Positions 4,950-16,861 of a DNA stretch of 64,000 nucleotides are shown in pieces (position 1 is the first letter of the stretch; each line of letters starts with the position of its first letter). The stretch is from Candidatus Eiseniibacteriota bacterium. GTDB lineage: Bacteria > Eisenbacteria > RBG-16-71-46 > JABDJR01. The notes beneath the pieces are model-generated. The model ran no database searches. It was not told the DNA's origin and was given only the letters and a program-made list of their open reading frames with translations. The position numbers and the translations under genes were made by a program. The DNA lies in NCBI GenBank assembly GCA_963728475.1, contig CAVSKL010000002.1, positions 558,365 through 622,364 of the forward strand. The letters are read 5' to 3'.

Positions 4950-6652
4950 CCGCCTCCGAGGCCCGCCCGGAAGCTCCCGGCCGCCGGGGCGCGGGGCTCC
5001 GGCTCTTCATGCTCGACAACTACGACTCCTTCACCTACAACCTGGTCCAGTACCTGAGCGAGTTCGGGGCGGAGGTCGCGGTGGCGCGCAACGACGCCGT
5101 CACCCCGTCCGAGGTCGCCGCGGGGGGCTATCACGGGGTGGTGATCTCGCCCGGCCCCGGGGTCCCCGCCGACGCCGGGGTGAGCGAGGCGGTGATCCGG
5201 GCGGTGACCGGGCGGACGCCGCTCCTCGGGGTGTGCCTGGGCCACCAGGCCCTGGGGGAGGTGTTCGGCGCCCGGGTGGTGCGGGCGGAGCGCCTGATGC
5301 ACGGCAAGACCTCGCCGGTGCTCCACGACGGCCGGGATCTCTTCGCCGGCCTCGAGAACCCCTTCACCGCCACCCGCTATCACTCGCTCCTCCTGGAACG
5401 GGGGAGCGTGAACGGGGTGCTCGAGATCTCGGCCTGGACGGAGGAGGGCGAGGTGATGGCGATTCGCCACCGCGAGGCCCCCGCCTGGGGGGTGCAGTTC
5501 CATCCCGAGTCCATCCTCACCGGAGCGGGAAAACACCTGCTCGCCAACTACCTCGACGCCTGCCGCGCCGCGGCCGGCGGGGAGGCTCCTGGTGATCCCC
5601 GGACCCCGGCCGGCATGACCGGCGACTCCCGCGGCCTCGGCGCCGCCCTGGAACGCCTCGCCGACGGCGGCAACCTCTCCCGCGGGGAGATGCGCGCGGC
5701 CATGGACGTCGTCATGCGGGGCGAGGCCACCGCGGCCCAGATCGGGGCGCTCCTGATGGCGCTCCGGGTCCGGGGCGAGACCCCCGAGGAGATCGCGGGG
5801 GCGGCGGAATCCATGCGCACCCACGCCCGCCGGATCGCGGTGGCCCGCGAGCCCCTCCTCGACACCTGCGGGACCGGAGGCGACCGGAGCGGGACCTTCA
5901 ACATCTCCACCGCCTCCGCCTTCGTGGCCGCGGGGGCGGGGGTGGCGGTGGCCAAGCACGGCAACCGTTCGGTGTCCAGCCGGTGCGGGAGCGCCGACGT
6001 GCTGGAGGCCCTGGGGGCGCGGATCGACCTCCCCCCCGAGGCGGTGGCCGCCTCCATCGAGAGCGTGGGCTTCGGCTTCCTGTTCGCCCCGGTGCACCAC
6101 GGCGCCATGAAGCACGCGGCCGCGCCGCGGCGCGAGCTGGCGCTCCGCACCCTGTTCAACGTGCTGGGGCCCCTCTCCAATCCCGCCGGAGCCACCCACC
6201 AGGTCCTGGGGGTGTACGCGGCCGGCCTCACCTCGACCCTGGCCGAGGTGCTGCGGATCCTAGGCCTGCGGGGGGCGATGGTGGTGCACGGCGCGGGGGG
6301 CCTAGACGAGCTCTCGCTCGCCGGCCCCAGCCGGGTGAGCGAGCTTCGCGACGGGACCGTGCGCACCTACGAGGTCGCTCCCGCCGAACTCGGCCTCGCC
6401 TCCGCCCCCGCGGACGCCCTGGCCGGGGGCGGCGCCGCCGAGAACGCGCTTCTCATCCGCGCCGTGTTCACCGGCCGCGAGGGCCCCGCCCGCGACGTGG
6501 TCTGCCTGAACGCGGGCGCCGCCCTCTACACCGTGGGAGCGTCCGCCACCCTCGCCGGGGGGGTCCGCCTCGCCCGCGACACGGTGGAGAGCGGACGGGC
6601 GCTCCAGGCGGTGGAGAACTACGTGCGGTTCACCCGGGAGTGGGACGGATGA
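4946..6652 (+). CDS. trpGD: Bifunctional anthranilate synthase component II / anthranilate phosphoribosyltransferase (TrpG-TrpD fusion)
   Basis: [29 protein letters not shown], then [23 protein letters not shown]; true start is the ATGA overlap with the recN stop. Confidence 0.93.
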
Positions 6653-7546: not shown

Positions 7547-7623
<77 letters not shown>

Positions 7624-7699: not shown

Positions 7700-9445
7700 A
7701 TGCCCAGAGTGACTCGGCGCCGGTGGTTCCTCTGCCTGCGGATGCTCGCGGTCCTGGCGGTGGCCGCCTTCTGGTTTCTCGCCGCCGGGCGGACCTCCCA
7801 GGCTCTTCCCCCCCAGGCCGAGGTCTCGGCCGACTCCATCCTCGCCACCGCACGCGACCTGAGCGGCGAGACCGGAATCGGGCCCCCCAGCCGGTTCGCC
7901 CCGCTACCCACCACCGGGATCTACGCGCGTTACCTGCTGAAGCGGCTCGACGACGCCCTGAAGCCCCTGGGCGGCTACGCGGTCCTCGACACCTTCTATC
8001 CCGGCCTCGATTATCACGGCCCTCACGAGATCCGCACCGCCTACACCGACGTGGTGGGCTGGCTCCCGGGCGCGATGGGCGGGACCTCGCCCGGGCTTTT
8101 CTTGCTGGGAGCGCACTTCGACGGCACCTCCCAGGCCGACAGCCTCACCCATCCCGAGTGGGACAAGTGGACCTCCCCCGCGCCCGGCGCCGACGACAAC
8201 GGAAGCGGGGTGGGCTCCATCCTGGAAGCGCTGCGGGTGGCCGCGGCCCGGAATCTCCGGCCCCAGGCCGGCGTGATGATCACCTTCTTCGACGGCGAGG
8301 AACAGCAGCTGATCGAGCGCGACCGCTTCCTGCTGGGGAGCCGGTATCTCGCCGACAGCGTGTTCGCGGCCGGGAAGCTCGACCCCCTCAAGCTCTACGG
8401 GGTGGTGAACCTGGACATGGTTTCCTACAACCCCCGCCGGGACTCGCTGGCCGTCATCACCAACATCCCCTCCCGGTGGCTGGCGAATGACCTCCTGGAC
8501 GTCCACCGCGGCGGCGCCGCCCCCGGGCTCGCCCTGTCCCGGCTGGTGAAGGGACTCACCTACAGCGACCACGCCTCGTTCTGGGCCGACGGTTACGATG
8601 CCGTCCTCCTCATCGAGGCCCCGGACATCGTCGACCACAACCCCTACTACCACACCATGCGCGACCTGGTGCCCAACACCTACTCGCGGAACGGAGCCAT
8701 GGCGGCCAAGGCCTCGGAGCTGCTCCTGGGACTGCTGCAATCGTGGGCGCAGACCGGTCCCGAGAGCCTGGTGGTCTCCGCCGACGGCATCCTGGTCCAG
8801 AAGGGGGTGGCGGTCGATCTCGCCACCGTGGACGCGGGCGAGGAGGTGAGCGTGGTGGTGCGGGTGGCCAACCGGGGCGGCGTGCACACCGCGCCGATGC
8901 AGGTGGAACTGGCCACCGCCGGCATGGACGGAAAGCCGATCCGCACCGTGAGCTCGGTGGTGGACGACGAGGTGCTCCCCCCCGGCGCGGCCGCCCGCCT
9001 GACCCTGCCCTGGACTCCGGACTCCCGGGAGCGGGGGGCGGTCCGGCTCCAGGCCCGGGTGATCTCGGGGAGCGGGCGGGCGATGGCCGACAAGCTGATC
9101 GCGGTGCGGGGGGGCGCGGCCGAGGTGCCCCAGGCCTTCGTGTATCCCAATCCCACCGCCGAACCCTCCACCGCCGTGGTGGGCTACTCCCTCACCCAGC
9201 CCGGGCCGGTGCGGATCGGGGTGCTCTCCCTGAACGGGCGGCTCCTCGCCCAGACCGACATCCCCTACGACCCGGTCTATCCCGACAGCAACGTGACCGC
9301 GGGCCGGGCCGACGTGCCCCTGAGCCGGGTCCTGCACGGCACCACGCTCGCCCCTGGGCTCTATCTCCTCCGGGTCGAGCTGTTCGGGGCCCGGTCGGGG
9401 GCCGGCGCGGACGTCGCCATGGCCCGGTTCGTGGTGCTTCGATAG
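7700..9445 (+). CDS. Secreted M28-family metallopeptidase with CARDB/Ig-like domain and C-terminal sorting-type domain
   Basis: Signal peptide; GAHFD, PGADDNGSG, FDGEE, NLDM, SDH, YHT; C-terminal YPNP...GLYLL domain. Start is 7700 (ATG) or 7709 (GTG, better SD spacing). Confidence 0.85.
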   Translation: MPRVTRRRWFLCLRMLAVLAVAAFWFLAAGRTSQALPPQAEVSADSILATARDLSGETGIGPPSRFAPLPTTGIYARYLLKRLDDALKPLGGYAVLDTFYPGLDYHGPHEIRTAYTDVVGWLPGAMGGTSPGLFLLGAHFDGTSQADSLTHPEWDKWTSPAPGADDNGSGVGSILEALRVAAARNLRPQAGVMITFFDGEEQQLIERDRFLLGSRYLADSVFAAGKLDPLKLYGVVNLDMVSYNPRRDSLAVITNIPSRWLANDLLDVHRGGAAPGLALSRLVKGLTYSDHASFWADGYDAVLLIEAPDIVDHNPYYHTMRDLVPNTYSRNGAMAAKASELLLGLLQSWAQTGPESLVVSADGILVQKGVAVDLATVDAGEEVSVVVRVANRGGVHTAPMQVELATAGMDGKPIRTVSSVVDDEVLPPGAAARLTLPWTPDSRERGAVRLQARVISGSGRAMADKLIAVRGGAAEVPQAFVYPNPTAEPSTAVVGYSLTQPGPVRIGVLSLNGRLLAQTDIPYDPVYPDSNVTAGRADVPLSRVLHGTTLAPGLYLLRVELFGARSGAGADVAMARFVVLR

Positions 9446-9447
9446 CG

Positions 9448-9732
9448 ATGCCGATCTCCCGGACCCCCCGGCCCGATCCCCGATCCGTCCGGTGGCTGTC
9501 CGGGGTGATGGCGGCGCTCTACGCCGCGACCTGCGCCCTGGTGATCTACTTCCGGCTGGGGCCGGTGTCGCGGGTGCTGGCCCGGGTGGAGCGGGACGGG
9601 GCCCGGGTCCCGGCCTGGATGCCGGCCGCCTTCACCGTGGGGGCGGTGGTGGCCGCGGCCTTCCTGGCCTGGAAGGGGGCGGTCTACCTCCGCCGGGCGT
9701 TGGGGCCTCGGACGGGGCCGCCCGCGCGGTGA
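9448..9732 (+). CDS. Small two-TM hypothetical membrane protein
   Basis: ATG 2 bp after the M28 stop; two hydrophobic helices; coding-like codon usage. Confidence 0.6.
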   Translation: MPISRTPRPDPRSVRWLSGVMAALYAATCALVIYFRLGPVSRVLARVERDGARVPAWMPAAFTVGAVVAAAFLAWKGAVYLRRALGPRTGPPAR

Positions 9733-9868
9733 GGGCCCCCCGGCCCTGCTCCCGCCAAATCCCCCGATCGCCGCGAATTGCCGCGATTATTTTGCGGGAT
9801 CGAAGGCTTCCCCTGCCGATATAGGGGGACGAAAGGGCAGCGCCGGACCCCCTTCCAAAGAGCGAAGC

Positions 9869-10906
9869 ATGAGCACCGAAAAGACATACCGCGAGCTTTG
9901 CCAGCGGCTCAAGGACATCACCGACCTCGACGAGGGGCGGCGGGACCTGGCCGGCATTCTCTCCCGCACGGCCGGCGCCGCCCGGGAACTCCTGGACGCG
10001 CCCCTGGTCTACGCCGCCGCCGCCGCCGACGGGGCGAGCCTGGTCTCGGTGGCGGAAGAGGGGGCGCTGATGGTGCGCACCGAGCCCTGGCAGGGCCCGG
10101 GCCGCCTGGGGCGCACCGTGCTCCAGGGGGACGGCTGCCGGGTGTGGACCCGGAGCGAGGAGGGGCCCCCTTCCGCCCACGACTTCCTCGACTTCGTGGG
10201 GGCGGGGAGCTGGATCGGCGTTCCCATCGCCATGCCCGACCGCCCCGCCGGCATCCTGGTCGCGCTCCGGGAGGATCCGGTGGGATTCGACGAGACCGAG
10301 CGCGATCTCATGCTGATCCTCACCGGCCACGCCGCCGCCGCCCTCGGCAACCTCCGCACCTTCCAGGAAGTGGAGTCGCTCGCCATCACCGACGAGCTGA
10401 CCCGGATCTACAACTACCGCTTCCTCAAGACCGCGCTCCGGCGGGAGGTGGCCCGCGCCTCGCGCTACGGCCAGACCTTCTCGGTGATCATGATCGACGT
10501 CGACCACCTCAAGAAGTACAACGAGAGCCACGGGCACCTGGGCGGGAGCGAGCTCCTGCGCCAGCTCGCCGGCATCCTCGCTCGCAACTCCCGGGCCATC
10601 GACCTGGTGGCCAAGTACGGCGGGGACGAATTCCTGGTCATCCTGCCCCAGACCCGCCTGGACGGGGCGGTGGTGATGGGGAACCGCATCTGCACCGCGG
10701 TGGCCGGCTCCTGCTTCCCGCACTGCACTCCCGGCGACATCACCGTGAGCATCGGGGTGGCGAGCTTCCCCCAGCACGGCGCGACCATGGAAGCGCTCCT
10801 GGCCGCTTCCGACGAGGCCCTCTTCCGGGCCAAGCGCGGGGGGCGGAACCGGGTGGAGTGCGCGGAGGCGCCGGGCAACCCGGACCGCATCGTCGAAGCC
10901 GCCTGA
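9869..10906 (+). CDS. GAF-GGDEF diguanylate cyclase
   Basis: DELT, MIDVDHLKKYNESHGH, RAID I-site, GGDEF, VSIGVA. Confidence 0.93.
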   Translation: MSTEKTYRELCQRLKDITDLDEGRRDLAGILSRTAGAARELLDAPLVYAAAAADGASLVSVAEEGALMVRTEPWQGPGRLGRTVLQGDGCRVWTRSEEGPPSAHDFLDFVGAGSWIGVPIAMPDRPAGILVALREDPVGFDETERDLMLILTGHAAAALGNLRTFQEVESLAITDELTRIYNYRFLKTALRREVARASRYGQTFSVIMIDVDHLKKYNESHGHLGGSELLRQLAGILARNSRAIDLVAKYGGDEFLVILPQTRLDGAVVMGNRICTAVAGSCFPHCTPGDITVSIGVASFPQHGATMEALLAASDEALFRAKRGGRNRVECAEAPGNPDRIVEAA

Positions 10907-10948
10907 CCCCGGCCGCGCCCCCTTTCGTATGGTCCGGACCGCGGCGGT

Positions 10949-11647
10949 GTGGTTGAATCTCTCCCCATGACCGGGACGCTCTTGGGCGACGACCGCGCGC
11001 TGGTGGGGCTGTCGTTCCTGTGGATCGGGGTGGTGATCGTGGTGGGGGAGGGGACGCGGCGCGTGTTCCGGCTCCCCCCCGAGGTGACCCGCAAGGTGGT
11101 GCACGTGGGGGTGGGGTTCTGGGCGTTGCCCACCGCCCTCTACTTCCGTTCCACCTGGCTCGCCGCCCTCTGCCCTCTGGTGTTCGTGTTCCTGAACGCC
11201 CTCTCCTACCGGTTCCGCCTGATGGAGGTGATCGAGGAGGAGGGGCGGGGGAGCCCCGGCACCATCTACTTCCCCCTCTCCTTCGCCGCCCTCATCCTTC
11301 TCCTGTGGCCGTTCGGAGCCCGCGCCGCCATGGTGGCCGGGCTCTTCGCCATGGGGTTCGGGGACGCCGCCGCCTCGGTGGTGGGCCGCCGGTTCGGACG
11401 CCGCCGCTATCGCACCGCCGCCGGCTCGAAATCGGGGGAGGGGAGCGCGGCCATGTTCGCCTTCTCGTTCGCCGCCATCCTGCTAGGGACCTATCCGCTC
11501 CTCTGGCGATGGATGTGGGGCCCCGCGCTGGGGGCCGCCGCCGCCGCCACCCTGGCCGAGGCGCCGGCCGGGCGCGGGCTGGACAACCTCACCGTCCCCG
11601 CGGCGGGGGCGCTGGTCTTCCTCGCGCTCCAGAGGATCGCCGGATGA
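10949..11647 (+). CDS. CTP-dependent prenol/phytol/dolichol kinase family membrane protein (SEC59/DGK1/VTE5)
   Basis: RKVVH, GDAAASVVG, KSGEGS, LDNLTVP; start may be 10967. Confidence 0.85.
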   Translation: MVESLPMTGTLLGDDRALVGLSFLWIGVVIVVGEGTRRVFRLPPEVTRKVVHVGVGFWALPTALYFRSTWLAALCPLVFVFLNALSYRFRLMEVIEEEGRGSPGTIYFPLSFAALILLLWPFGARAAMVAGLFAMGFGDAAASVVGRRFGRRRYRTAAGSKSGEGSAAMFAFSFAAILLGTYPLLWRWMWGPALGAAAAATLAEAPAGRGLDNLTVPAAGALVFLALQRIAG

Positions 11648-12654
11648 AGGTGTTCCTCACCGGGGGCACCGGTTACCTGGGCGAGCACGTGGCCCGGGCG
11701 CTTCTTGAGGCCGGCCACGAGGTCACCGCGCTGGCCCGCTCCCCGGAGCGCGGCGCGGCGCTCCGCGGCGGCGGGGCGACGGTGGTCCTGGGCGACCTCG
11801 AGGATTCCACCACCTGGGCCGAGGCCCTGGACGGGATGGAAGGGCTGGTCCACACCGCGGCGGTGGTGGAGAGCTGGAGCGCCGATCCCGAGCGCTTCGA
11901 CCGCATCAACGTCGTGGCCACCCTCGACCTCCTGGACCGGGCCCGGGCCTTCGGCATCCCCCGGGTGGTGGTGACGGGGACCCTGTTCGCCCTCGGGCCG
12001 TCCGCGCCCGGCGCGGTCCGGGACGAACACGCCCTCGATCTCGAACCCGGCGCCTGGAGCCGGGCCAACGACTACGTCCGCACCCGGACCGCGGTGTCGC
12101 GAAAGATCCGCGAGCGGCAGCGCCGGGGCGGCCCGGTGATGACCGCGATCCCCACCGTCCTCCTCGGTCCGGGACGCAGGACCCGCGGCAACCACACCGC
12201 CCGCGTTCTGGACGAGATCGGACGCCGGCGCTTTCCGGGGCTGGTGGGGAGCGGGGCCCAGGTCTGGAACCTGGTGCCGGTGGCGCGGGCGGCCCGGGGC
12301 CACGTGCTCGCCCTGGAGCGCGGCCGCCCCGGAGAGAACTACCTCCTGGGGGGCGAGAACTGGAGCGAGCGGAAGCTGGTCGAGGAAGCGGCGCGGGCGT
12401 TCGGGGTCCGCCCCCCTCTCACCCGGCTCGGCACCGGGGTCCCCCTGGCGGTGGGGGCGGCGTGCGAGCTGTGGGCGGGCCTCACCGGCCGCGCCCCTTA
12501 CCTCACCCGGGGGGAGGTCCGGCTCTACCGGGAGAACTGGGCGGTCTCCAGCGAGAAGGCGCGCCGGGAGCTGGGCTATGAGGCGGGGGGAGTGGATGCC
12601 GTCCTCGCCGAGACCGTCGCCTGGCTCCGGGACGAGGTCTGGCCGCGCCGATGA
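11644..12654 (+). CDS. NAD-dependent extended SDR, farnesol dehydrogenase (FLDH)/HpnA-like
   Basis: TGGTGYLG, HTAAVVESW, FALG, YVRTR, GHVLALERGRPGENYLLGGEN; ATGA overlaps with both neighbours. Confidence 0.85.
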   Translation: MKVFLTGGTGYLGEHVARALLEAGHEVTALARSPERGAALRGGGATVVLGDLEDSTTWAEALDGMEGLVHTAAVVESWSADPERFDRINVVATLDLLDRARAFGIPRVVVTGTLFALGPSAPGAVRDEHALDLEPGAWSRANDYVRTRTAVSRKIRERQRRGGPVMTAIPTVLLGPGRRTRGNHTARVLDEIGRRRFPGLVGSGAQVWNLVPVARAARGHVLALERGRPGENYLLGGENWSERKLVEEAARAFGVRPPLTRLGTGVPLAVGAACELWAGLTGRAPYLTRGEVRLYRENWAVSSEKARRELGYEAGGVDAVLAETVAWLRDEVWPRR

Positions 12655-13382
12655 TCCCCCACGATCTTCACGCCCTGGCCCGGAACGCCCTCCCCGCTCT
12701 GCTGGTGAACCTGGTCTTCGCGGCGGCGGCGTTCCTGGGCGGGGGAGTCCGCTTCTCCGGGGTGGTGGGGGGGCTGGCGGTGGGGGTCCCGATCTACCTC
12801 GGCCTGGGTTGGCGTGGATTCCTGGTGCTCCTGGTCTTCTTCGTGATCGGGACCGGGCTCACCCGCCTGGGTTACTCCCGGAAGGAGGCGATGGGGGTGG
12901 CCGAGGCCGGCCGGGGACGCCGCGGGGCCAGCCACGCCTTCGCCAACGTGGGGGTGGCCGCCCTCTGCGCGGCCGGGGCCTGGAGCCTCGGGTCGACGCT
13001 CTTGGCCGTCGCCTTCACCGCGGCGCTGGCCACCGCGGCCATGGACACCGCGGGCTCGGAGGTGGGGCCGCTCTGGGGACGGCGGACGATCTCGCTCCGG
13101 AACCTCCGGCGGGTGCCTCCCGGCACCGAGGGGGCGGTCTCGCTGGAGGGAACCGCGGCGGGGCTGGCGGCGGCGGCGCTGGTGGCGGCGGGCGCGATTC
13201 TCCCCGGACTGATACCGCTCTCCGCCCTGGCCGCGGTGGTGGCCGCGGCCTGGATCGGGAACCTCTACGAGGGGATCCTGGGCTCCCGCCGGCTCCTGCC
13301 TCATGCCTGGCTCAACGCCACCAACACCCTGGTGGGGGCGGCGGTGGCGGCCGCGCTCTCCGCCGGTTTCCCGGGGAAGTGA
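12651..13382 (+). CDS. DUF92 (COG1836/TMEM19/VTE6-like) membrane protein
   Basis: GRRGASHAFAN, AMDTAGSEVG, VPPGTEGAVSLEGT, NATNT. Confidence 0.9.
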   Translation: MIPHDLHALARNALPALLVNLVFAAAAFLGGGVRFSGVVGGLAVGVPIYLGLGWRGFLVLLVFFVIGTGLTRLGYSRKEAMGVAEAGRGRRGASHAFANVGVAALCAAGAWSLGSTLLAVAFTAALATAAMDTAGSEVGPLWGRRTISLRNLRRVPPGTEGAVSLEGTAAGLAAAALVAAGAILPGLIPLSALAAVVAAAWIGNLYEGILGSRRLLPHAWLNATNTLVGAAVAAALSAGFPGK

Positions 13383-13438
13383 CCGGGCCGCCGCCCTAAG
13401 TCCGCCCCGTTCCCTGCCGAAACCAGGACGACTGAGCT

Positions 13439-13467
13439 TTGACCCCCCGGGAATCCGGGGGTAAACT
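13439..13467 (+). promoter_or_regulatory. Putative sigma70 promoter of the nucleotide-sugar operon, inside a long inverted repeat
   Basis: TTGACC-N17-TAAACT within an imperfect palindrome at 13424-13477. Confidence 0.55.
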
Positions 13468-13505
13468 CAGTCCCCTGCTTCCGCCCTTTCCAAGGAGATC
13501 CTGAG

Positions 13506-14798
13506 GTGCTCACCGAGAAATTCAAGAACAAGAGCGCGCGCCTGGGGGTGATCGGTCTGGGTTACGTGGGCCTGCCGCTGGCCGTCGAGTACGCTCGCGC
13601 CGGGTTCCGGGTGACCGGGTTCGACGTGTCGGCCGAGAAGGTGGACGGGATCAACGCGGGCCGGTCCCACGTCAAGGACGTGCCCACCGAGGTCCTGGCC
13701 GGTTACGTCAAGGAAGGACTGATCCGGGCCACCACCGAGTTCACGGAGCTCGCCCGGATGGATTCGGTCAACATTTGCGTGCCTACCCCGCTCCGCAAGA
13801 CCCGCGACCCCGACGTGTCCTACATCGTGTCGGCGGTGGAGGAGATCGCCCGGTACCTCCACCAGGACATGCTGGTGATCCTGGAGAGCACCACCTATCC
13901 CGGGACCACCGAGGAGCTGATCCTGCCCATGCTCGAGGCCTCCGGCCTCCGGGTGGGGGAGGACTTCTTCCTCGGCTTCTCGCCGGAGCGGGTGGACCCG
14001 GGCAACCAGAACTACACCACCCGCAACATCCCCAAGGTGGTGGGCGGGGTGACCCCGGCCTGCACCGAGACCGCGGCCCAGCTCTACGCCAGCACCCTGG
14101 AGACGGTGGTCCCGGTGACCTCCACCCGGGTGGCGGAGATGGTGAAGCTGCTCGAGAACACCTTCCGCTCGGTGAACATCGGGCTGGTGAACGAGCTGGC
14201 GCTCATGTGCGACAGCATGGGGATCGACGTGTGGGAGGTGATCCGCGCCGCCTCCACCAAGCCCTTCGGGTTCATGCCGTTCTATCCCGGCCCGGGCCTG
14301 GGCGGCCACTGCATTCCCATCGACCCGTTCTACCTGTCCTGGAAGGCCCGCCAGGTCGGCTTCGAGGCCCGCTTCATCGAGCTGGCCGGGCTCATCAACT
14401 CCTACATGCCGCAGCACGTGGTCCAGAAGTCGATCCAGGCCCTGAACGACCGCGCCAAGGCCATGAAGGGAGCCCGCATCCTGATTCTGGGAGTGGCCTA
14501 CAAGGCGGACATCGACGACGTGCGGGAGTCGCCCGCCATCGATGTGATCAACCGGCTCAGGGGGATGCAGGCCGAGGTGGCGTTCCACGATCCGTTCGTG
14601 GCCGACCTCACCCACGAGGGGATCGACCTGAGTTCGGTGGAGCTCAGCGACCGGCGCCTGGCCGAGAGCGACCTGGTGCTGATCATCACGCCTCACGCCA
14701 CCTTCGACTACGAGCGCATCCTGGAGAAATCGCCGCTCATCCTGGATACCCGGAACGCGTACCCGGGCCGGACGTCGCCCAAGATCTGGAGACTCTAG
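13506..14798 (+). CDS. UDP-N-acetyl-hexosamine/UDP-glucose 6-dehydrogenase (WbpA/WecC-like)
   Basis: GLGYVGLP, ICVPTP, ESTTYPGTT, KLLENTFR, PGLGGHC, RESP. Confidence 0.93.
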   Translation: MLTEKFKNKSARLGVIGLGYVGLPLAVEYARAGFRVTGFDVSAEKVDGINAGRSHVKDVPTEVLAGYVKEGLIRATTEFTELARMDSVNICVPTPLRKTRDPDVSYIVSAVEEIARYLHQDMLVILESTTYPGTTEELILPMLEASGLRVGEDFFLGFSPERVDPGNQNYTTRNIPKVVGGVTPACTETAAQLYASTLETVVPVTSTRVAEMVKLLENTFRSVNIGLVNELALMCDSMGIDVWEVIRAASTKPFGFMPFYPGPGLGGHCIPIDPFYLSWKARQVGFEARFIELAGLINSYMPQHVVQKSIQALNDRAKAMKGARILILGVAYKADIDDVRESPAIDVINRLRGMQAEVAFHDPFVADLTHEGIDLSSVELSDRRLAESDLVLIITPHATFDYERILEKSPLILDTRNAYPGRTSPKIWRL

Positions 14799-14800
14799 CC

Positions 14801-15763
14801 GTGCCCCACTACCTGGTCACCGGCGGAGGCGGCTTCATCGGCTCCCACCTGGTGGAGCGCCTCCTCACCGACGGCCATCGGGTGCGGGTCCTGGACGATT
14901 TCTCCACCGGCCGGCGCTCCAATATCGAGGCGGTCCGGCACGCCGGTTCCGACCGGCTCCACGTCTCCACCGGGGACATCCGCGACCCCAAGGTGGTGGG
15001 GGAGGCGGTGGCGGGGACCGACGGGGTGTTCCACCTCGCCGCCCTCGGCTCGGTGCCGCGCTCGATCTGCCATCCCCAGGAAACCCACGCCGTCAACGCC
15101 ACCGGCACCCTCAACGTGCTGGTGGCGGCGCGGGACGCCGAGGTCAAGCGGGTGCTGTTCGCGGGGTCCTCCAGCGTGTTCGGGGCGCTGGAGGAGCTGC
15201 CCAAGCGCGAAGATCATCCCACCCGGCCCATCTCTCCCTACGGCCTCACCAAGCTCATGGGCGAGCACTATCTCCGCCTCTTCCACGAACTCTACGGGCT
15301 GGAGACGGTGACCCTGCGCTACTACAACGTGTTCGGCCCGCGCCAGAATCCCAAGAGCCGGTACGCGGCGGTCATCCCCATCTTCATCTCCCGGATCATG
15401 CACGGCGAAGCCCCGCAGGTGGACGGGGACGGCGGGCAGACCCGCGACTTCACCTACGTGGAGAACGTGGTCGAGGCGAATCTGCTGGCCATGCACGCCC
15501 CCGCGGAGCGGGTGGCGGGACAGGTGATCAACGTCGCCGCCGGGGGCCGCCACTCGCTGAACGAACTCATCCAGCGGGTGGGGGAGATCCTGGGGGTGGC
15601 GCCGGCGCCGGAGTACGGGCCGCCCCGCGAGGGGGACATCCGGGACTCCCAGGCCGACATCGCGCTGGCCCGGCGGGTGCTGGGCTTCGAGCCCTCGATC
15701 AGCTTCGCGGAAGGATTGAAGCGCACGGTGGCGTACTTCAAGGAGAGCGGCGAAGCCGCCTGA
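14801..15763 (+). CDS. NAD-dependent UDP-GlcNAc(A) 4-epimerase (WbpP-like)
   Basis: TGGGGFIGS, AALGSVPRS, YGLTK, RYYNVFGPRQ, TRDFTYV; GTG start 2 bp after the upstream stop. Confidence 0.9.
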   Translation: MPHYLVTGGGGFIGSHLVERLLTDGHRVRVLDDFSTGRRSNIEAVRHAGSDRLHVSTGDIRDPKVVGEAVAGTDGVFHLAALGSVPRSICHPQETHAVNATGTLNVLVAARDAEVKRVLFAGSSSVFGALEELPKREDHPTRPISPYGLTKLMGEHYLRLFHELYGLETVTLRYYNVFGPRQNPKSRYAAVIPIFISRIMHGEAPQVDGDGGQTRDFTYVENVVEANLLAMHAPAERVAGQVINVAAGGRHSLNELIQRVGEILGVAPAPEYGPPREGDIRDSQADIALARRVLGFEPSISFAEGLKRTVAYFKESGEAA

Positions 15764-15808
15764 ACCAGCCGGCACGGGAGCGCCCGGCGCCGGAACGAGG
15801 AGGGGGAG

Positions 15809-16861
15809 ATGGCCGAGCGCGGCAAGATCCTGGTCACCGGAGGCGCCGGCTTCATCGGCTCGCACGTGGCGGAGATCATGGCCGGCGACGGCCACCCGGT
15901 GACCGTGCTCGACAACCTCAGCCGGGCCCGGCTGCTGAAGAAGGACGACCGGAACGCCCGCCACAACTGGGATCACCTCGCCGGCCTCGGCAACGTGACG
16001 TTGCTGGAGGCGGACGTGCGGAACTTCGACGCGGTGCGCGCCGCCGCCGAGGACGCCGAGGTCGTGTTCCACACCGCCGCCCAGACCGCGGTCACCACCT
16101 CGGTCACCGACCCCCGCCAGGATTTCGAGAACAACGTCGTCGGCACCTTCAACGTGCTGGAGGCGGCGCGGGCCCAGCGGCGCCGCCCGGCGGTGGTGTT
16201 TTGCTCCACCAACAAGGTGTTCGGCGAGAACGTGAACGCGCTGCCGCTGGTGGAGGAGGCGAGCCGATGGGCCTTCGCGCCCGGGCACGCCTCCGGCATC
16301 GCCGAGACCTTCCCGGTGGACCGCTGCGAGCACACCCCCTACGGCTGCTCCAAGCTCACCGGCGATCTCTACGCGCAGGACTACGCCCGCCTCTACGGGA
16401 TCAAGACCGGGGTGTTCCGCATGTCGTGCATCTACGGCACCCGGCAGTTCGGGATGGAGGACCAGGGTTGGGTGGCCTGGTTCGTGATCGCCGCGCTCAC
16501 CGGCAAGCCCCTCACCGTGTTCGGGGACGGGAAGCAGGTGCGCGACCTCCTGTGGGTGGACGACCTGGTGGCCGCTTACCGGGCCTTCCTGGGATCGGAC
16601 CGGCCGCACGGGGTCTACAACATGGGAGGCGGCCCCGAGTTCACCCTCTCGCTCCGGGAGCTCCTCGCCCAGCTCGGGGACCATCTCGGAGCCGCGGTCC
16701 CCGCCACCTTCGCCGACTGGCGCCCCAGCGACCAGAAGGTCTACGTCTCCGACATCTCCAAGGCCCGCTCCGAGCTGGGCTGGGCCCCCCGGGTCTCCCC
16801 CCGGGAGGGCGTGGACCGCCTCATCGCCTGGGTCGACGCCAACCGGGCGCTGTTCGCCTGA
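15809..16861 (+). CDS. CDP-paratose 2-epimerase (RfbE)-like NAD-dependent epimerase
   Basis: AQTAVTTS, STNKV, YGCSK, FRMSCIYG, EDQGWVAWF, WRPSDQ. Confidence 0.88.
   Translation: MAERGKILVTGGAGFIGSHVAEIMAGDGHPVTVLDNLSRARLLKKDDRNARHNWDHLAGLGNVTLLEADVRNFDAVRAAAEDAEVVFHTAAQTAVTTSVTDPRQDFENNVVGTFNVLEAARAQRRRPAVVFCSTNKVFGENVNALPLVEEASRWAFAPGHASGIAETFPVDRCEHTPYGCSKLTGDLYAQDYARLYGIKTGVFRMSCIYGTRQFGMEDQGWVAWFVIAALTGKPLTVFGDGKQVRDLLWVDDLVAAYRAFLGSDRPHGVYNMGGGPEFTLSLRELLAQLGDHLGAAVPATFADWRPSDQKVYVSDISKARSELGWAPRVSPREGVDRLIAWVDANRALFA

Follow-up and report, generated by a model that had tools for sequence, protein, structure and literature searches.

A recurrent module of a Sec59-like kinase, an SDR and a DUF92 protein with a possible role in the activation of free isoprenoid alcohols in non-photosynthetic bacteria

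According to the available part of PMC9782597, biochemical observations in bacteria, animals and plants attest to a salvage of farnesol and geranylgeraniol in which two kinases act in succession, and the genes for it have been identified in plants and cyanobacteria alone. COG1836, the DUF92 family that includes VTE6, is listed under 'phytol-phosphate metabolism', and its linkage with a kinase in prokaryotes is on record (PMC3223725) and is also stated in the accessible portion of PMC9782597; the first-pass annotation of the locus described here likewise treats this linkage as known. As far as the available text of PMC13415981 goes, the plant route leads from farnesal via FLDH to farnesol and via FOLK to F-P, with the cytosolic F-P/GG-P kinase missing. 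The accessible sections of PMC5898192 report a distant relationship between DUF92 and the PF01148 family (97.6% HHpred probability) and, in Methanosarcina, a fusion of DUF92 with a Sec59-like domain.

The locus considered here lies in the window (the whole stretch of DNA that was analysed, 64,000 nucleotides) and consists of three genes on the plus strand. The first, at 10967..11647 (with an alternative GTG start at 10949), encodes a kinase-like protein, hereafter KIN, that is 226 aa long when translated from the ATG at 10967, which is the length of most of its close homologues. The second, at 11644..12654, encodes an extended short-chain dehydrogenase/reductase (SDR) of 336 aa, and the third, at 12651..13382, a DUF92 membrane protein of 243 aa (COG1836, VTE6/TMEM19 family). 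The initial description of three genes joined by two ATGA overlaps, at 11644-11647 and 12651-12654, where the stop of each gene overlaps the start of the next, is confirmed by the sequence and the translations. The sole promoter-like site between 9400 and 14000 is a sigma-70-like match, TTGACC-17-TAAACT, on the plus strand at 13439..13467, between DUF92 and a nucleotide-sugar dehydrogenase gene; this is a consensus match only, with 0.0 expected from shuffles, and a separate transcription unit probably begins here. The odds appear about even that KIN, SDR and DUF92 form a translationally coupled operon that is part of a system for the activation of free isoprenoid alcohols. More specifically, the reading that we favor, with a probability of roughly 0.5, is that KIN and DUF92 activate a prenol to the prenyl diphosphate for an enzyme of the UbiA family, the SDR being an optional entry oxidoreductase.

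The KIN protein is a polytopic membrane protein of a divergent COG0170/Sec59 type, similar to phytol and dolichol kinases. Its match to PF01148 (15.8 bits at E 0.013) stays below the cut-off of 24 bits; no Pfam family scores above its cut-off and no NCBIfam model matches at E <= 0.01. Of the 17 aligned relatives of KIN, 5 match PF01148 at E <= 0.01, with 3.2e-4 as the lowest value. Wherever automatic annotation (JGI) assigns a functional name among the 120 KIN homologues listed, the name is 'phytol kinase' or 'dolichol kinase'; one record reads 'hypothetical protein'. The window KIN retains all 15 invariant columns of the respective alignment (A2), among them R42, H46, N77, G132-D133, E198 and D206-N207, which represent conservation among KIN relatives. 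The DUF92 protein, which is encoded by a single-copy gene in this genome, matches PF01940 well above the cut-off (140.5 bits against 27.5) and TIGR00297 below it (139.4 bits against 205.85), and shares with its relatives every one of the 30 residues that are invariant in alignment A3. A profile-profile comparison between DUF92 and KIN gives E 2.6e-4 with a 42% probability. The DUF92 family also includes human TMEM19. The family assignments originally made for the three genes (CTP-dependent prenol kinase family, extended SDR and DUF92) are upheld, with KIN as a divergent member that falls under the Pfam cut-off.

The SDR matches PF01370 ('epimerase') with 104.2 bits. The best NCBIfam match is HpnA (TIGR03466), with 211 bits against a cut-off of 367.65, followed by SdmB (109 bits) and OleD (94.5 bits), also below cut-off, whereas GalE reaches 42 bits against a cut-off of 262.3 and dTDP-glucose 4,6-dehydratase 25 bits against 365. 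Matches in the PDB that extend over most of the SDR length include cinnamoyl-CoA and vestitone reductases. Judging by these similarities, the relatives of this protein are lipid or carbonyl reductases and not sugar epimerases. In a phylogenetic tree that took in HpnA and OleD and no plant FLDH, the DUF92-linked SDRs form a clade of their own, apart from both (SH-aLRT 96). On the question raised in the first-pass annotation, the SDR does not group with HpnA, and it scores far under the cut-offs of the sugar-enzyme models GalE and dTDP-glucose 4,6-dehydratase. As far as sequence analysis reaches, none of the outcomes named there as refuting has come up.

The nucleotide-binding motif TGGTGYLG is present in the window SDR, along with T113 and Y144. 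At position 148, the place of the catalytic Lys in the YxxxK motif, the window SDR has an Arg (codon CGG at 12085..12087, plus strand) in contrast to the Lys that is found in 72 of the 72 other aligned relatives and in 31 of 31 in alignment A1; the change from AAR to CGG takes two base changes. The Ser/Thr-Tyr-Lys catalytic set together with TGxxGxxG is accordingly present in the clade as a whole and incomplete in the window SDR, whose activity may be reduced or changed by Arg148. Another residue, Arg32, which follows strand beta-2, is conserved without exception in the 72 relatives. An Arg in this position is, by the cofactor rule for SDRs, indicative of NADP(H), so that its invariance hints at a reductive role. 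Two leads point to a likeness to FLDH: many of the SDR homologues are named farnesol dehydrogenase by JGI, and the nearest ESM-Atlas cluster (score 0.99, 237 of 256 features common) is 80% Eukaryota, mostly Streptophyta. No fused version of the SDR came up at E <= 1e-20 in a search for proteins of 589-2000 aa, which is weak evidence. With regard to the three proteins together, a complex prediction for KIN, DUF92 and SDR (alignments A2, A3 and A1) scored 0.00, which makes no call either way. A search of sequencing runs matched one soil-metagenome DNA run, with 0.06 of the words, and no RNA run.

Across the 151 genomes of the window's phylum, SDR matches at E <= 1e-59 are present in 19, and in all 19 the gene is located 39-149 nt from DUF92 on the same strand. 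The KIN gene is also adjacent in six of these genomes, all of them (the window included) from the window's own family, f1; in the remaining 13, the KIN homologue lies at a distance of more than 150 kb or on a different contig. Family f5 shows a different pattern, with KIN directly upstream of DUF92 in 25 of the 27 DUF92-bearing genomes and no SDR in any of the 32 genomes at E <= 1e-20. The deeper link is that between SDR and DUF92, and this association exceeds chance. The expectation that the triad would be conserved is borne out, with the three domains linked in two phyla, but the kinase-SDR-DUF92 order is confined to the window's family. In the window's class, the genes for a nucleotide-sugar dehydrogenase (UGDH) and an epimerase (EPI1) come after all 5 triad loci and after 12 of the 13 SDR-DUF92 loci. 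A long block from GGDEF to a histidine kinase and response regulator is syntenic in this class, so that part of the module adjacency there is inherited. In the window itself, the nucleotide-sugar genes beside the module are UGDH (TIGR03026, 447 bits), a TviC-like epimerase and a third epimerase/dehydratase.

Outside this phylum, loci with the same three domains were found in Acidobacteriota. The search for related loci with alignment A1 was keyed on the Rossmann motif and, among the matches listed, only the top Acidobacteriota loci are informative. In a set of 201 Acidobacteriota genomes, DUF92 is encoded in 93, and the SDR is upstream of DUF92 in 38, with a gap of 633-1054 nt that holds the KIN domain; the order of the three domains thus differs from that in the window. 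Four loci (L002, L003, L004 and L008) contain the SDR gene followed by a single ORF in which KIN is fused to DUF92. In another locus, L005, the SDR, KIN and part of DUF92 are in one frame but frameshifted, and this was not counted as a fusion. The surroundings of the fusions vary: L004 and L008 have RmlA-, RmlB- and RmlD-like genes upstream, plus a 300-aa epimerase, L003 has no epimerase upstream, and no UGDH homologue was found in the Acidobacteriota loci. All 42 SDR matches at E <= 1e-48 come from DUF92-bearing genomes. In the opposite direction, a strong SDR match (E <= 6e-44) is present in only 44 of the 93 DUF92-bearing genomes. The absence of the SDR from many genomes that carry the module implies that it is not a core step; the same is seen in family f5, where DUF92 occurs in 27 of the 32 genomes, none of which has the SDR.

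A fourth component is a prenyltransferase of the UbiA family. Its gene is directly 3' of the KIN::DUF92 fusion in L002, L003, L004 and L008, and among the 201 Acidobacteriota genomes, 69 of the 70 that carry the UbiA orthologue also have DUF92, the two genes being adjacent in 43. The window's genome encodes an orthologue, 51-59% identical over its full length, at another locus (G000:C4:180988-181911); in the window's phylum, the UbiA gene does not adjoin the module. The phyletic patterns nevertheless agree in this phylum, where UbiA and DUF92 occur together in 46 genomes, DUF92 without UbiA in 3 and UbiA without DUF92 in 6; the distribution across families is alike, with 0 of 60 genomes of family f3 encoding UbiA and 0 of 60 encoding DUF92. 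The best NCBIfam matches of this UbiA protein are PRK12884, ChlG, BchG, HPT and DGGGPS, all below cut-off. In the window's class, the UbiA gene has two divergently transcribed genes as neighbours, one of them PorU-like and the other encoding 629 aa, and these are uninformative. The generic quinone or lipid-carrier sink suggested in the first-pass annotation is not what these data point to; the sink is likely one specific ChlG/HPT/DGGGPS-like UbiA prenyltransferase.

Given the gene structure, family placement, conserved linkage, fusion and phyletic co-occurrence described above, the activation of a prenol by KIN and DUF92 could proceed as follows. The COG0170-type membrane kinase, KIN, would phosphorylate the prenol to prenyl phosphate, using CTP by family analogy, and DUF92, acting as VTE6 does on phytyl phosphate and likewise assigned by similarity to that enzyme, would add the second phosphate to produce prenyl diphosphate. 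The allylic prenyl diphosphate would then be the donor for the dedicated UbiA enzyme, whose relatives are chlorophyll synthase, homogentisate phytyltransferase and DGGGP synthase. Since ChlG/HPT/DGGGPS-type enzymes use C20 donors, our best guess for the chain is geranylgeranyl or phytyl. The soluble SDR would be an optional entry or buffer step that converts the corresponding prenal and prenol into each other, most likely through reduction of the aldehyde with NADPH. The substrates, nucleotide donor, chain length, direction of the SDR reaction and UbiA acceptor are all predictions. The initially proposed route from prenal through prenol and prenyl phosphate to prenyl diphosphate stands with respect to the linked genes and their families, but the SDR is optional and the prenal, prenol and CTP chemistry remains at the level of prediction.

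The window's genome encodes the MEP pathway, FPP and long-chain synthases and a futalosine menaquinone pathway, which are possible sinks. For geranylgeranyl reductase, the best match in this genome is below the cut-off (93.7 bits against 158.8). Archaeal-type ether lipids were considered as a destination and rejected, with no PcrB/GGGPS match, as was a tocopherol pathway, for which no tocopherol cyclase was found although HPPD is present. The latter enzyme is common in tyrosine catabolism.

The presence of nucleotide-sugar genes beside the module in both phyla (UGDH and epimerases in one, RmlA/RmlB/RmlD-like genes in the other) would fit a different part for the SDR. The kinases and UbiA could act as proposed above, with the SDR making or modifying the acceptor or a sugar moiety, so that the product would be a glycosylated or otherwise decorated prenyl lipid built with the flanking nucleotide-sugar genes. 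The match of the SDR to the PF01370 'epimerase' family and the occurrence of the kinase pair without the SDR are compatible with this scheme. Nevertheless, we consider it unlikely: GalE, RmlB and other sugar-enzyme models score far under the lipid-acting relatives, the promoter-like site stands between DUF92 and UGDH, no UGDH homologue was found in the Acidobacteriota loci and L003 has no epimerase upstream, and the long synteny block explains some of the proximity of these genes within the window's class.

Another reading, which is rather improbable, has the module work as dolichol or undecaprenol kinases do, returning a long-chain polyprenol carrier to glycan assembly and not feeding a C15-C20 chain to a prenyltransferase; in this case the SDR would be a polyprenol/polyprenal oxidoreductase like DHRSX. 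Some of the KIN homologues are indeed named dolichol kinase, sugar genes are nearby, and the genome encodes a decaprenyl-phosphate phosphoribosyltransferase (280 bits, cut-off 234), which uses polyprenyl phosphate; furthermore, archaeal DUF92 is located with uppS, as the available portion of PMC5898192 indicates. A carrier lipid, however, needs a monophosphate, which leaves the second kinase, DUF92, without an obvious purpose, and the tight linkage and co-occurrence with a ChlG/HPT/DGGGPS-like UbiA protein suggest that the donor is an allylic diphosphate with a chain of moderate length. Very little speaks for the SDR as a passenger that shares inherited gene order with the kinases and has no functional tie to them. 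The synteny of the whole region in the window's class and the lack of the SDR in f5 would fit, but this SDR clade is linked with KIN::DUF92 in another phylum too, where the order is not the same, and no strong SDR match comes from a genome that lacks DUF92 (19 of 19 and 42 of 42 with DUF92). Finally, the possibility that the SDR is HpnA itself, the hopanoid-associated 'sugar epimerase', as its best NCBIfam match would have it, is negligible, considering the shortfall of its score from the TIGR03466 cut-off, which only L018 passes among 71 relatives, the range of 163.6-233.1 bits for the DUF92-linked SDRs (21 with a score given), the separation of the two clades (SH-aLRT 96 and 99) and the lack of a squalene-hopene cyclase (PF13243) match in the 98.8% complete genome.

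If KIN and DUF92 indeed supply prenyl diphosphate to the UbiA enzyme, a bolder extension, which we regard as doubtful, is that in non-photosynthetic soil Acidobacteriota and in the Eisenbacteria-like phylum, the SDR, prenol kinase, DUF92 and UbiA constitute a four-enzyme route that captures C20 aldehydes or alcohols and attaches the chain to an acceptor, yielding an undescribed class of prenylated lipids similar to quinols, tocopherols or ether lipids. The C20 compounds could come from phytol or phytenal of decaying plant matter or from the bacterium's own dephosphorylated GGPP; we know of no bacterial source of prenals. If true, this would be the first genetically tractable prenal-to-prenyl diphosphate salvage outside phototrophs. 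The module, with its presence in two phyla, is a compact system for asking whether DUF92 proteins are general prenyl-phosphate kinases; it also points to a prenylated product in two widespread soil lineages and offers parts for alcohol-fed isoprenoid production.

A search of the literature did not find a description of the SDR-kinase-DUF92-UbiA module, although the neighbourhood analyses in Seaver 2014 and vom Dorp 2015 may already show part of it. Several known systems resemble it to different extents. HpnA, SdmB and OleD are lipid-acting extended SDRs of the same superfamily with Arg32 in common, but the module SDR scores below all the respective cut-offs, belongs to a separate clade and is encoded in a genome without a hopanoid cyclase. 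Eukaryotic dolichol synthesis (DHRSX, SRD5A3 and DOLK) also places a polyprenol/polyprenal SDR upstream of a CTP-dependent Sec59-family kinase; that route saturates the alpha-isoprene and ends at the monophosphate, whereas the module has a second kinase and a partner predicted to use an allylic diphosphate. Archaeal arCOG02245 (COG1836) protein Mbar_A3310, with its N-terminal Sec59-like domain, has the same kinase::DUF92 architecture as the Acidobacteriota ORFs, and the remote kinship of its two domains is mirrored by the profile match between KIN and DUF92; it differs in that its reported conserved context is uppS, the available portion of the report mentioning neither an SDR nor a ChlG/HPT-like UbiA. 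Prenylcysteine recycling in plants (FCLY, FLDH and FOLK) has the same order of chemistry as proposed here, from aldehyde to alcohol to phosphate, but the genes are unlinked in plants and form a single putative operon in the window, and the window SDR has R148 instead of K. The closest parallel is the plant and cyanobacterial pathway in which VTE5 and VTE6 feed VTE2/HPT: the same two membrane families would act in series in the module, and HPT and ChlG are among the models that the linked UbiA protein matches best. In contrast to that pathway, the hosts of the module are non-photosynthetic (relatives named Candidatus Eisenbacteria, and Acidobacteriota), an SDR is added, there is no tocopherol cyclase among the genes found, KIN is under the PF01148 cut-off, and UbiA passes no equivalog cut-off. 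Altogether, the module appears to be a variant of salvage of the VTE5/VTE6 type, in which the recurrent link to a ChlG/HPT/DGGGPS-like UbiA protein in Acidobacteriota is the new element.

The module comprises three genes on the plus strand: a kinase-like gene of the COG0170 type (KIN; GTG 10949 or ATG 10967 to 11647), an extended SDR gene (11644-12654) and a DUF92 gene (12651-13382). As the first-pass annotation had stated, both junctions are ATGA stop/start overlaps present in the window sequence (11644-11647 and 12651-12654); such overlap of a stop codon with the next start typically indicates translational coupling. The start of KIN was placed at 10967 because the resulting 226 aa correspond to the length of most close homologues. 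DUF92, a single-copy gene in this genome, scores 140.5 bits to PF01940 (cut-off 27.5), and the SDR matches PF01370 (104.2 bits). KIN passes no curated cut-off (PF01148, 15.8 bits, E 0.013) and matches no NCBIfam model at E <= 0.01; a homologue search returned 321 proteins at E <= 1e-3, and the only functional names given by any source among the 120 listed are 'phytol kinase' and 'dolichol kinase'. All invariant residues are retained in both KIN (15/15, 17-sequence alignment) and DUF92 (30/30, 14-sequence alignment). In a profile-profile comparison, the KIN block GD..A..G..G/S.EG aligns with the DUF92 block DT..SE.G..G/S.EG (E 2.6e-4, 42% probability), in agreement with the distant kinship of COG1836 to PF01148 recorded in PMC5898192.

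The three proteins were searched in 151 genomes of the window's phylum (records of the window's relatives bear the name Candidatus Eisenbacteria), and match coordinates were compared. DUF92 is present in 49 genomes and is patchy by family (f1, which includes the window's genome, 6/6; f2, 2/2; f5, 27/32; f9, 9/10; f3, 0/60). In all 19 genomes with an SDR match at E <= 1e-59, the SDR lies 39-149 nt from DUF92 on the same strand; in 13 of these, the KIN homologue is distant, separated by more than 150 kb or placed on a different contig. In f5, KIN is directly upstream of DUF92 in 25 of the 27 DUF92-bearing genomes (one of the remaining two has KIN 2.4 kb away, the other has no KIN match), and none of the 32 genomes has an SDR at E <= 1e-20. 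The triad thus unites two kinds of pair, with the SDR dispensable. The operon proposed in the first-pass annotation is conserved as the SDR-DUF92 pair, and its domains recur in Acidobacteriota, but the KIN-SDR-DUF92 order is found in six genomes only, all from f1 and including the window's. Comparison of the window's proteins with 20 fetched loci by tblastn indicates that a larger block is syntenic across the class: GGDEF, with or without KIN and SDR, then DUF92, nucleotide-sugar dehydrogenase (UGDH), two epimerases, histidine kinase and response regulator. UGDH and the epimerase that follows it are found after DUF92 in 12/13 pair loci and 5/5 triad loci, so that adjacency within the class is partly inherited. 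Two relatives in the window's family contain frameshifts, one in KIN near residues 38-40 (L128, genome G036, about 8170-8290) and one in DUF92 near residues 143-146 (L127, genome G026, about 6259-6301); because both assemblies consist of few contigs, these could equally well be indel errors of long-read sequencing or real decay. In genome G086, the apparent KIN stop is upstream of the start codon.

The top SDR matches outside the phylum are Acidobacteriota loci. In four of these (L002, L003, L004 and L008), a single ORF downstream of the SDR joins KIN and DUF92 domains without an intervening stop (475 aa at 4966-6390 in L004); L005 has SDR, KIN and DUF92 in the same order but frameshifted. Among 201 Acidobacteriota genomes, DUF92 is above the cut-off in 93, usually within an open frame of some 450 aa, and the KIN domain is present in 79. 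An SDR is located upstream of the DUF92 domain on the same strand, with a gap of 633-1054 nt, in 38 genomes, and the KIN match falls inside this gap in the rows compared (e.g., G214 and G151). Of the 42 SDR matches at E <= 1e-48, all from genomes with DUF92, 36 are linked to it and six are on other contigs of draft assemblies; one of these six adjoins a KIN that is truncated where the contig ends. The unpublished genome G179 contributes one genome to each of the DUF92, KIN, UbiA and UbiA-adjacent totals and does not affect those for the SDR. One Thermoanaerobaculia locus additionally contains a 424-aa ORF between epimerase genes and the SDR (L008:2708-3979), with no Pfam match at E <= 1e-6.

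Immediately downstream of the fusion, L002, L003 and L004 carry a UbiA-family prenyltransferase gene (PF01040, 101-138 bits); the copy in L008 (6369-7352) is 71% identical. The top NCBIfam matches, all below cut-off, are PRK12884 prenyltransferase, chlorophyll/bacteriochlorophyll synthases, homogentisate phytyltransferase and DGGGP synthases. Of the 201 Acidobacteriota genomes, 70 have an orthologue at E <= 1e-30, and 69 of the 70 carry DUF92 as well. Adjacent UbiA and DUF92 genes occur in 43 genomes: 40 have them on the same strand, spaced by 29-327 nt in 39 cases and by 1200 nt in one, and 3 on opposite strands. The window's genome encodes a full-length orthologue (51-59% identical) outside the window (G000:C4:180988-181911, i.e., L133:3989-4912). 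Across the phylum, the orthologue is found in 52/151 genomes, alone between divergently transcribed neighbours, and its family pattern is that of DUF92: 46 genomes have both, 3 DUF92 only and 6 UbiA only, where the 46 correspond to about eight family-level agreements, kin not being independent. Also on G000:C4 of the window's genome, and outside the window, L134:4119-5913 encodes a UbiA enzyme of the decaprenyl-phosphate phosphoribosyltransferase type (280 bits, cut-off 234). Its locus includes a gene for ribose-phosphate diphosphokinase, ispE directly downstream and, about 1.5 kb upstream, a long-form RmlA; this locus suggests a polyprenyl-phosphate-ribose pathway in a non-actinobacterial genome.

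The three genes after the triad (13506-16861), an arrangement conserved across the class, encode the WecC/TviB-like UGDH (TIGR03026, 447 bits), a TviC-like epimerase (239 bits, below cut-off) and another epimerase/dehydratase. On the other side, a GGDEF-domain gene (9869-10906) ends 60 nt before KIN and keeps its place beside the module in f1, f2 and f5 genomes; no promoter-like site was found between the two, so co-transcription is possible. Further upstream, trpC and an M28-family peptidase gene flank a tRNA-Arg (CCG; 7547-7623). Nucleotide-sugar genes flank the module in both phyla, which favors the main competing explanation, namely that the kinase-UbiA core is as proposed whereas the SDR has another substrate, tied to these genes. 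However, 9400-14000 contains a single sigma-70-like promoter match, at 13439-13467 (a sequence match only), and it separates DUF92 from the dehydrogenase gene; UGDH is not linked to the module in Acidobacteriota, and sugar-enzyme models score poorly against the SDR (GalE, only 42 bits). A further rival, recycling of a carrier lipid by the module, would have no need of a second kinase. Pure synteny is disfavored as the cause of the SDR adjacency: given the different gene order, the fusion and the second phylum, a functional tie among SDR, KIN and DUF92 is much more likely.

The top NCBIfam model for the SDR is HpnA (211 bits, cut-off 367.65), followed by SdmB (109 bits) and OleD (94.5). The homologue set came from 100 fetched loci; tblastn alignments shorter than 250 residues were left out, as was the L003 SDR, whose extracted ORF overran the stop codon although the gene itself is intact. 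Among the 71 homologues scanned, L018 alone passes the HpnA cut-off (432.7 bits), and the DUF92-linked SDRs score 163.6-233.1 bits (n = 21 with a listed score). In a quick IQ-TREE phylogeny of 72 rows, the DUF92-linked SDRs from both phyla form one clade (25 rows, SH-aLRT 96), apart from the 26-row clade of HpnA and near-HpnA sequences (SH-aLRT 99) and from an OleD-like clade (SH-aLRT 97). The 25-row clade includes two Acidobacteriota rows, L007 and L006, without DUF92 within the fetched flanks; the L006 locus ends 700 nt downstream. Identity with HpnA is thus rejected on the sub-cut-off score, the separate clades and the lack of a squalene-hopene cyclase match in the window's genome (98.8% complete). 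Leads to a possible similarity with plant farnesol dehydrogenase (FLDH) come from the JGI name 'farnesol dehydrogenase' of many homologues and from the nearest ESM-Atlas cluster, which is 80% Eukaryota, mostly Streptophyta.

The window's SDR is unusual in having Arg148 (CGG, 12085-12087, plus strand) at the position of the catalytic Lys of YxxxK, which is Lys in 72/72 other aligned relatives, same-genus orthologues included; T113 stands where Ser is usual. A sequencing error is unlikely because AAR to CGG requires two base changes, and the gene does not look decayed because its branch is not unusually long; the substitution may weaken or change the chemistry of this enzyme. Arg32 after strand beta-2 is invariant (72/72 aligned SDRs), and an Arg at this position is the SDR rule for NADP(H), which suggests an NADP(H) cofactor and hence a reductive role.

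What follows is inferred throughout, from substrates and nucleotide to chain length, the direction in which the SDR runs, and the acceptor of the UbiA enzyme. KIN probably phosphorylates a free prenol, DUF92 would add the second phosphate to the prenyl phosphate, and the linked UbiA enzyme probably consumes the resulting allylic diphosphate. At the entry, the SDR probably converts between this prenol and its aldehyde. For the chain itself, geranylgeranyl or phytyl is our best guess because the nearest named relatives of the UbiA enzyme all use C20 donors. The window's genome encodes the MEP pathway, FPP and long-chain synthases, heme O synthase, an MqnP-type menaquinone pathway and decaprenyl-P phosphoribosyltransferase; it lacks GGGPS and tocopherol cyclase, and has no geranylgeranyl reductase above cut-off. 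Linkage and fusion of the kinase with COG1836 are already recorded (a table in PMC3223725; PMC5898192). Our literature search found no description of an FLDH-like SDR or a dedicated UbiA as conserved partners of kinase-DUF92; Seaver 2014 and vom Dorp 2015 may show part of this. The proposed route mirrors that of plants, in which phytol passes through phytol kinase (VTE5) and the DUF92 phytyl-phosphate kinase (VTE6) to homogentisate phytyltransferase (HPT) or chlorophyll synthase (ChlG), and its entry mirrors the conversion of farnesal by FLDH to farnesol, the substrate of farnesol kinase (FOLK), as outlined in PMC13415981.
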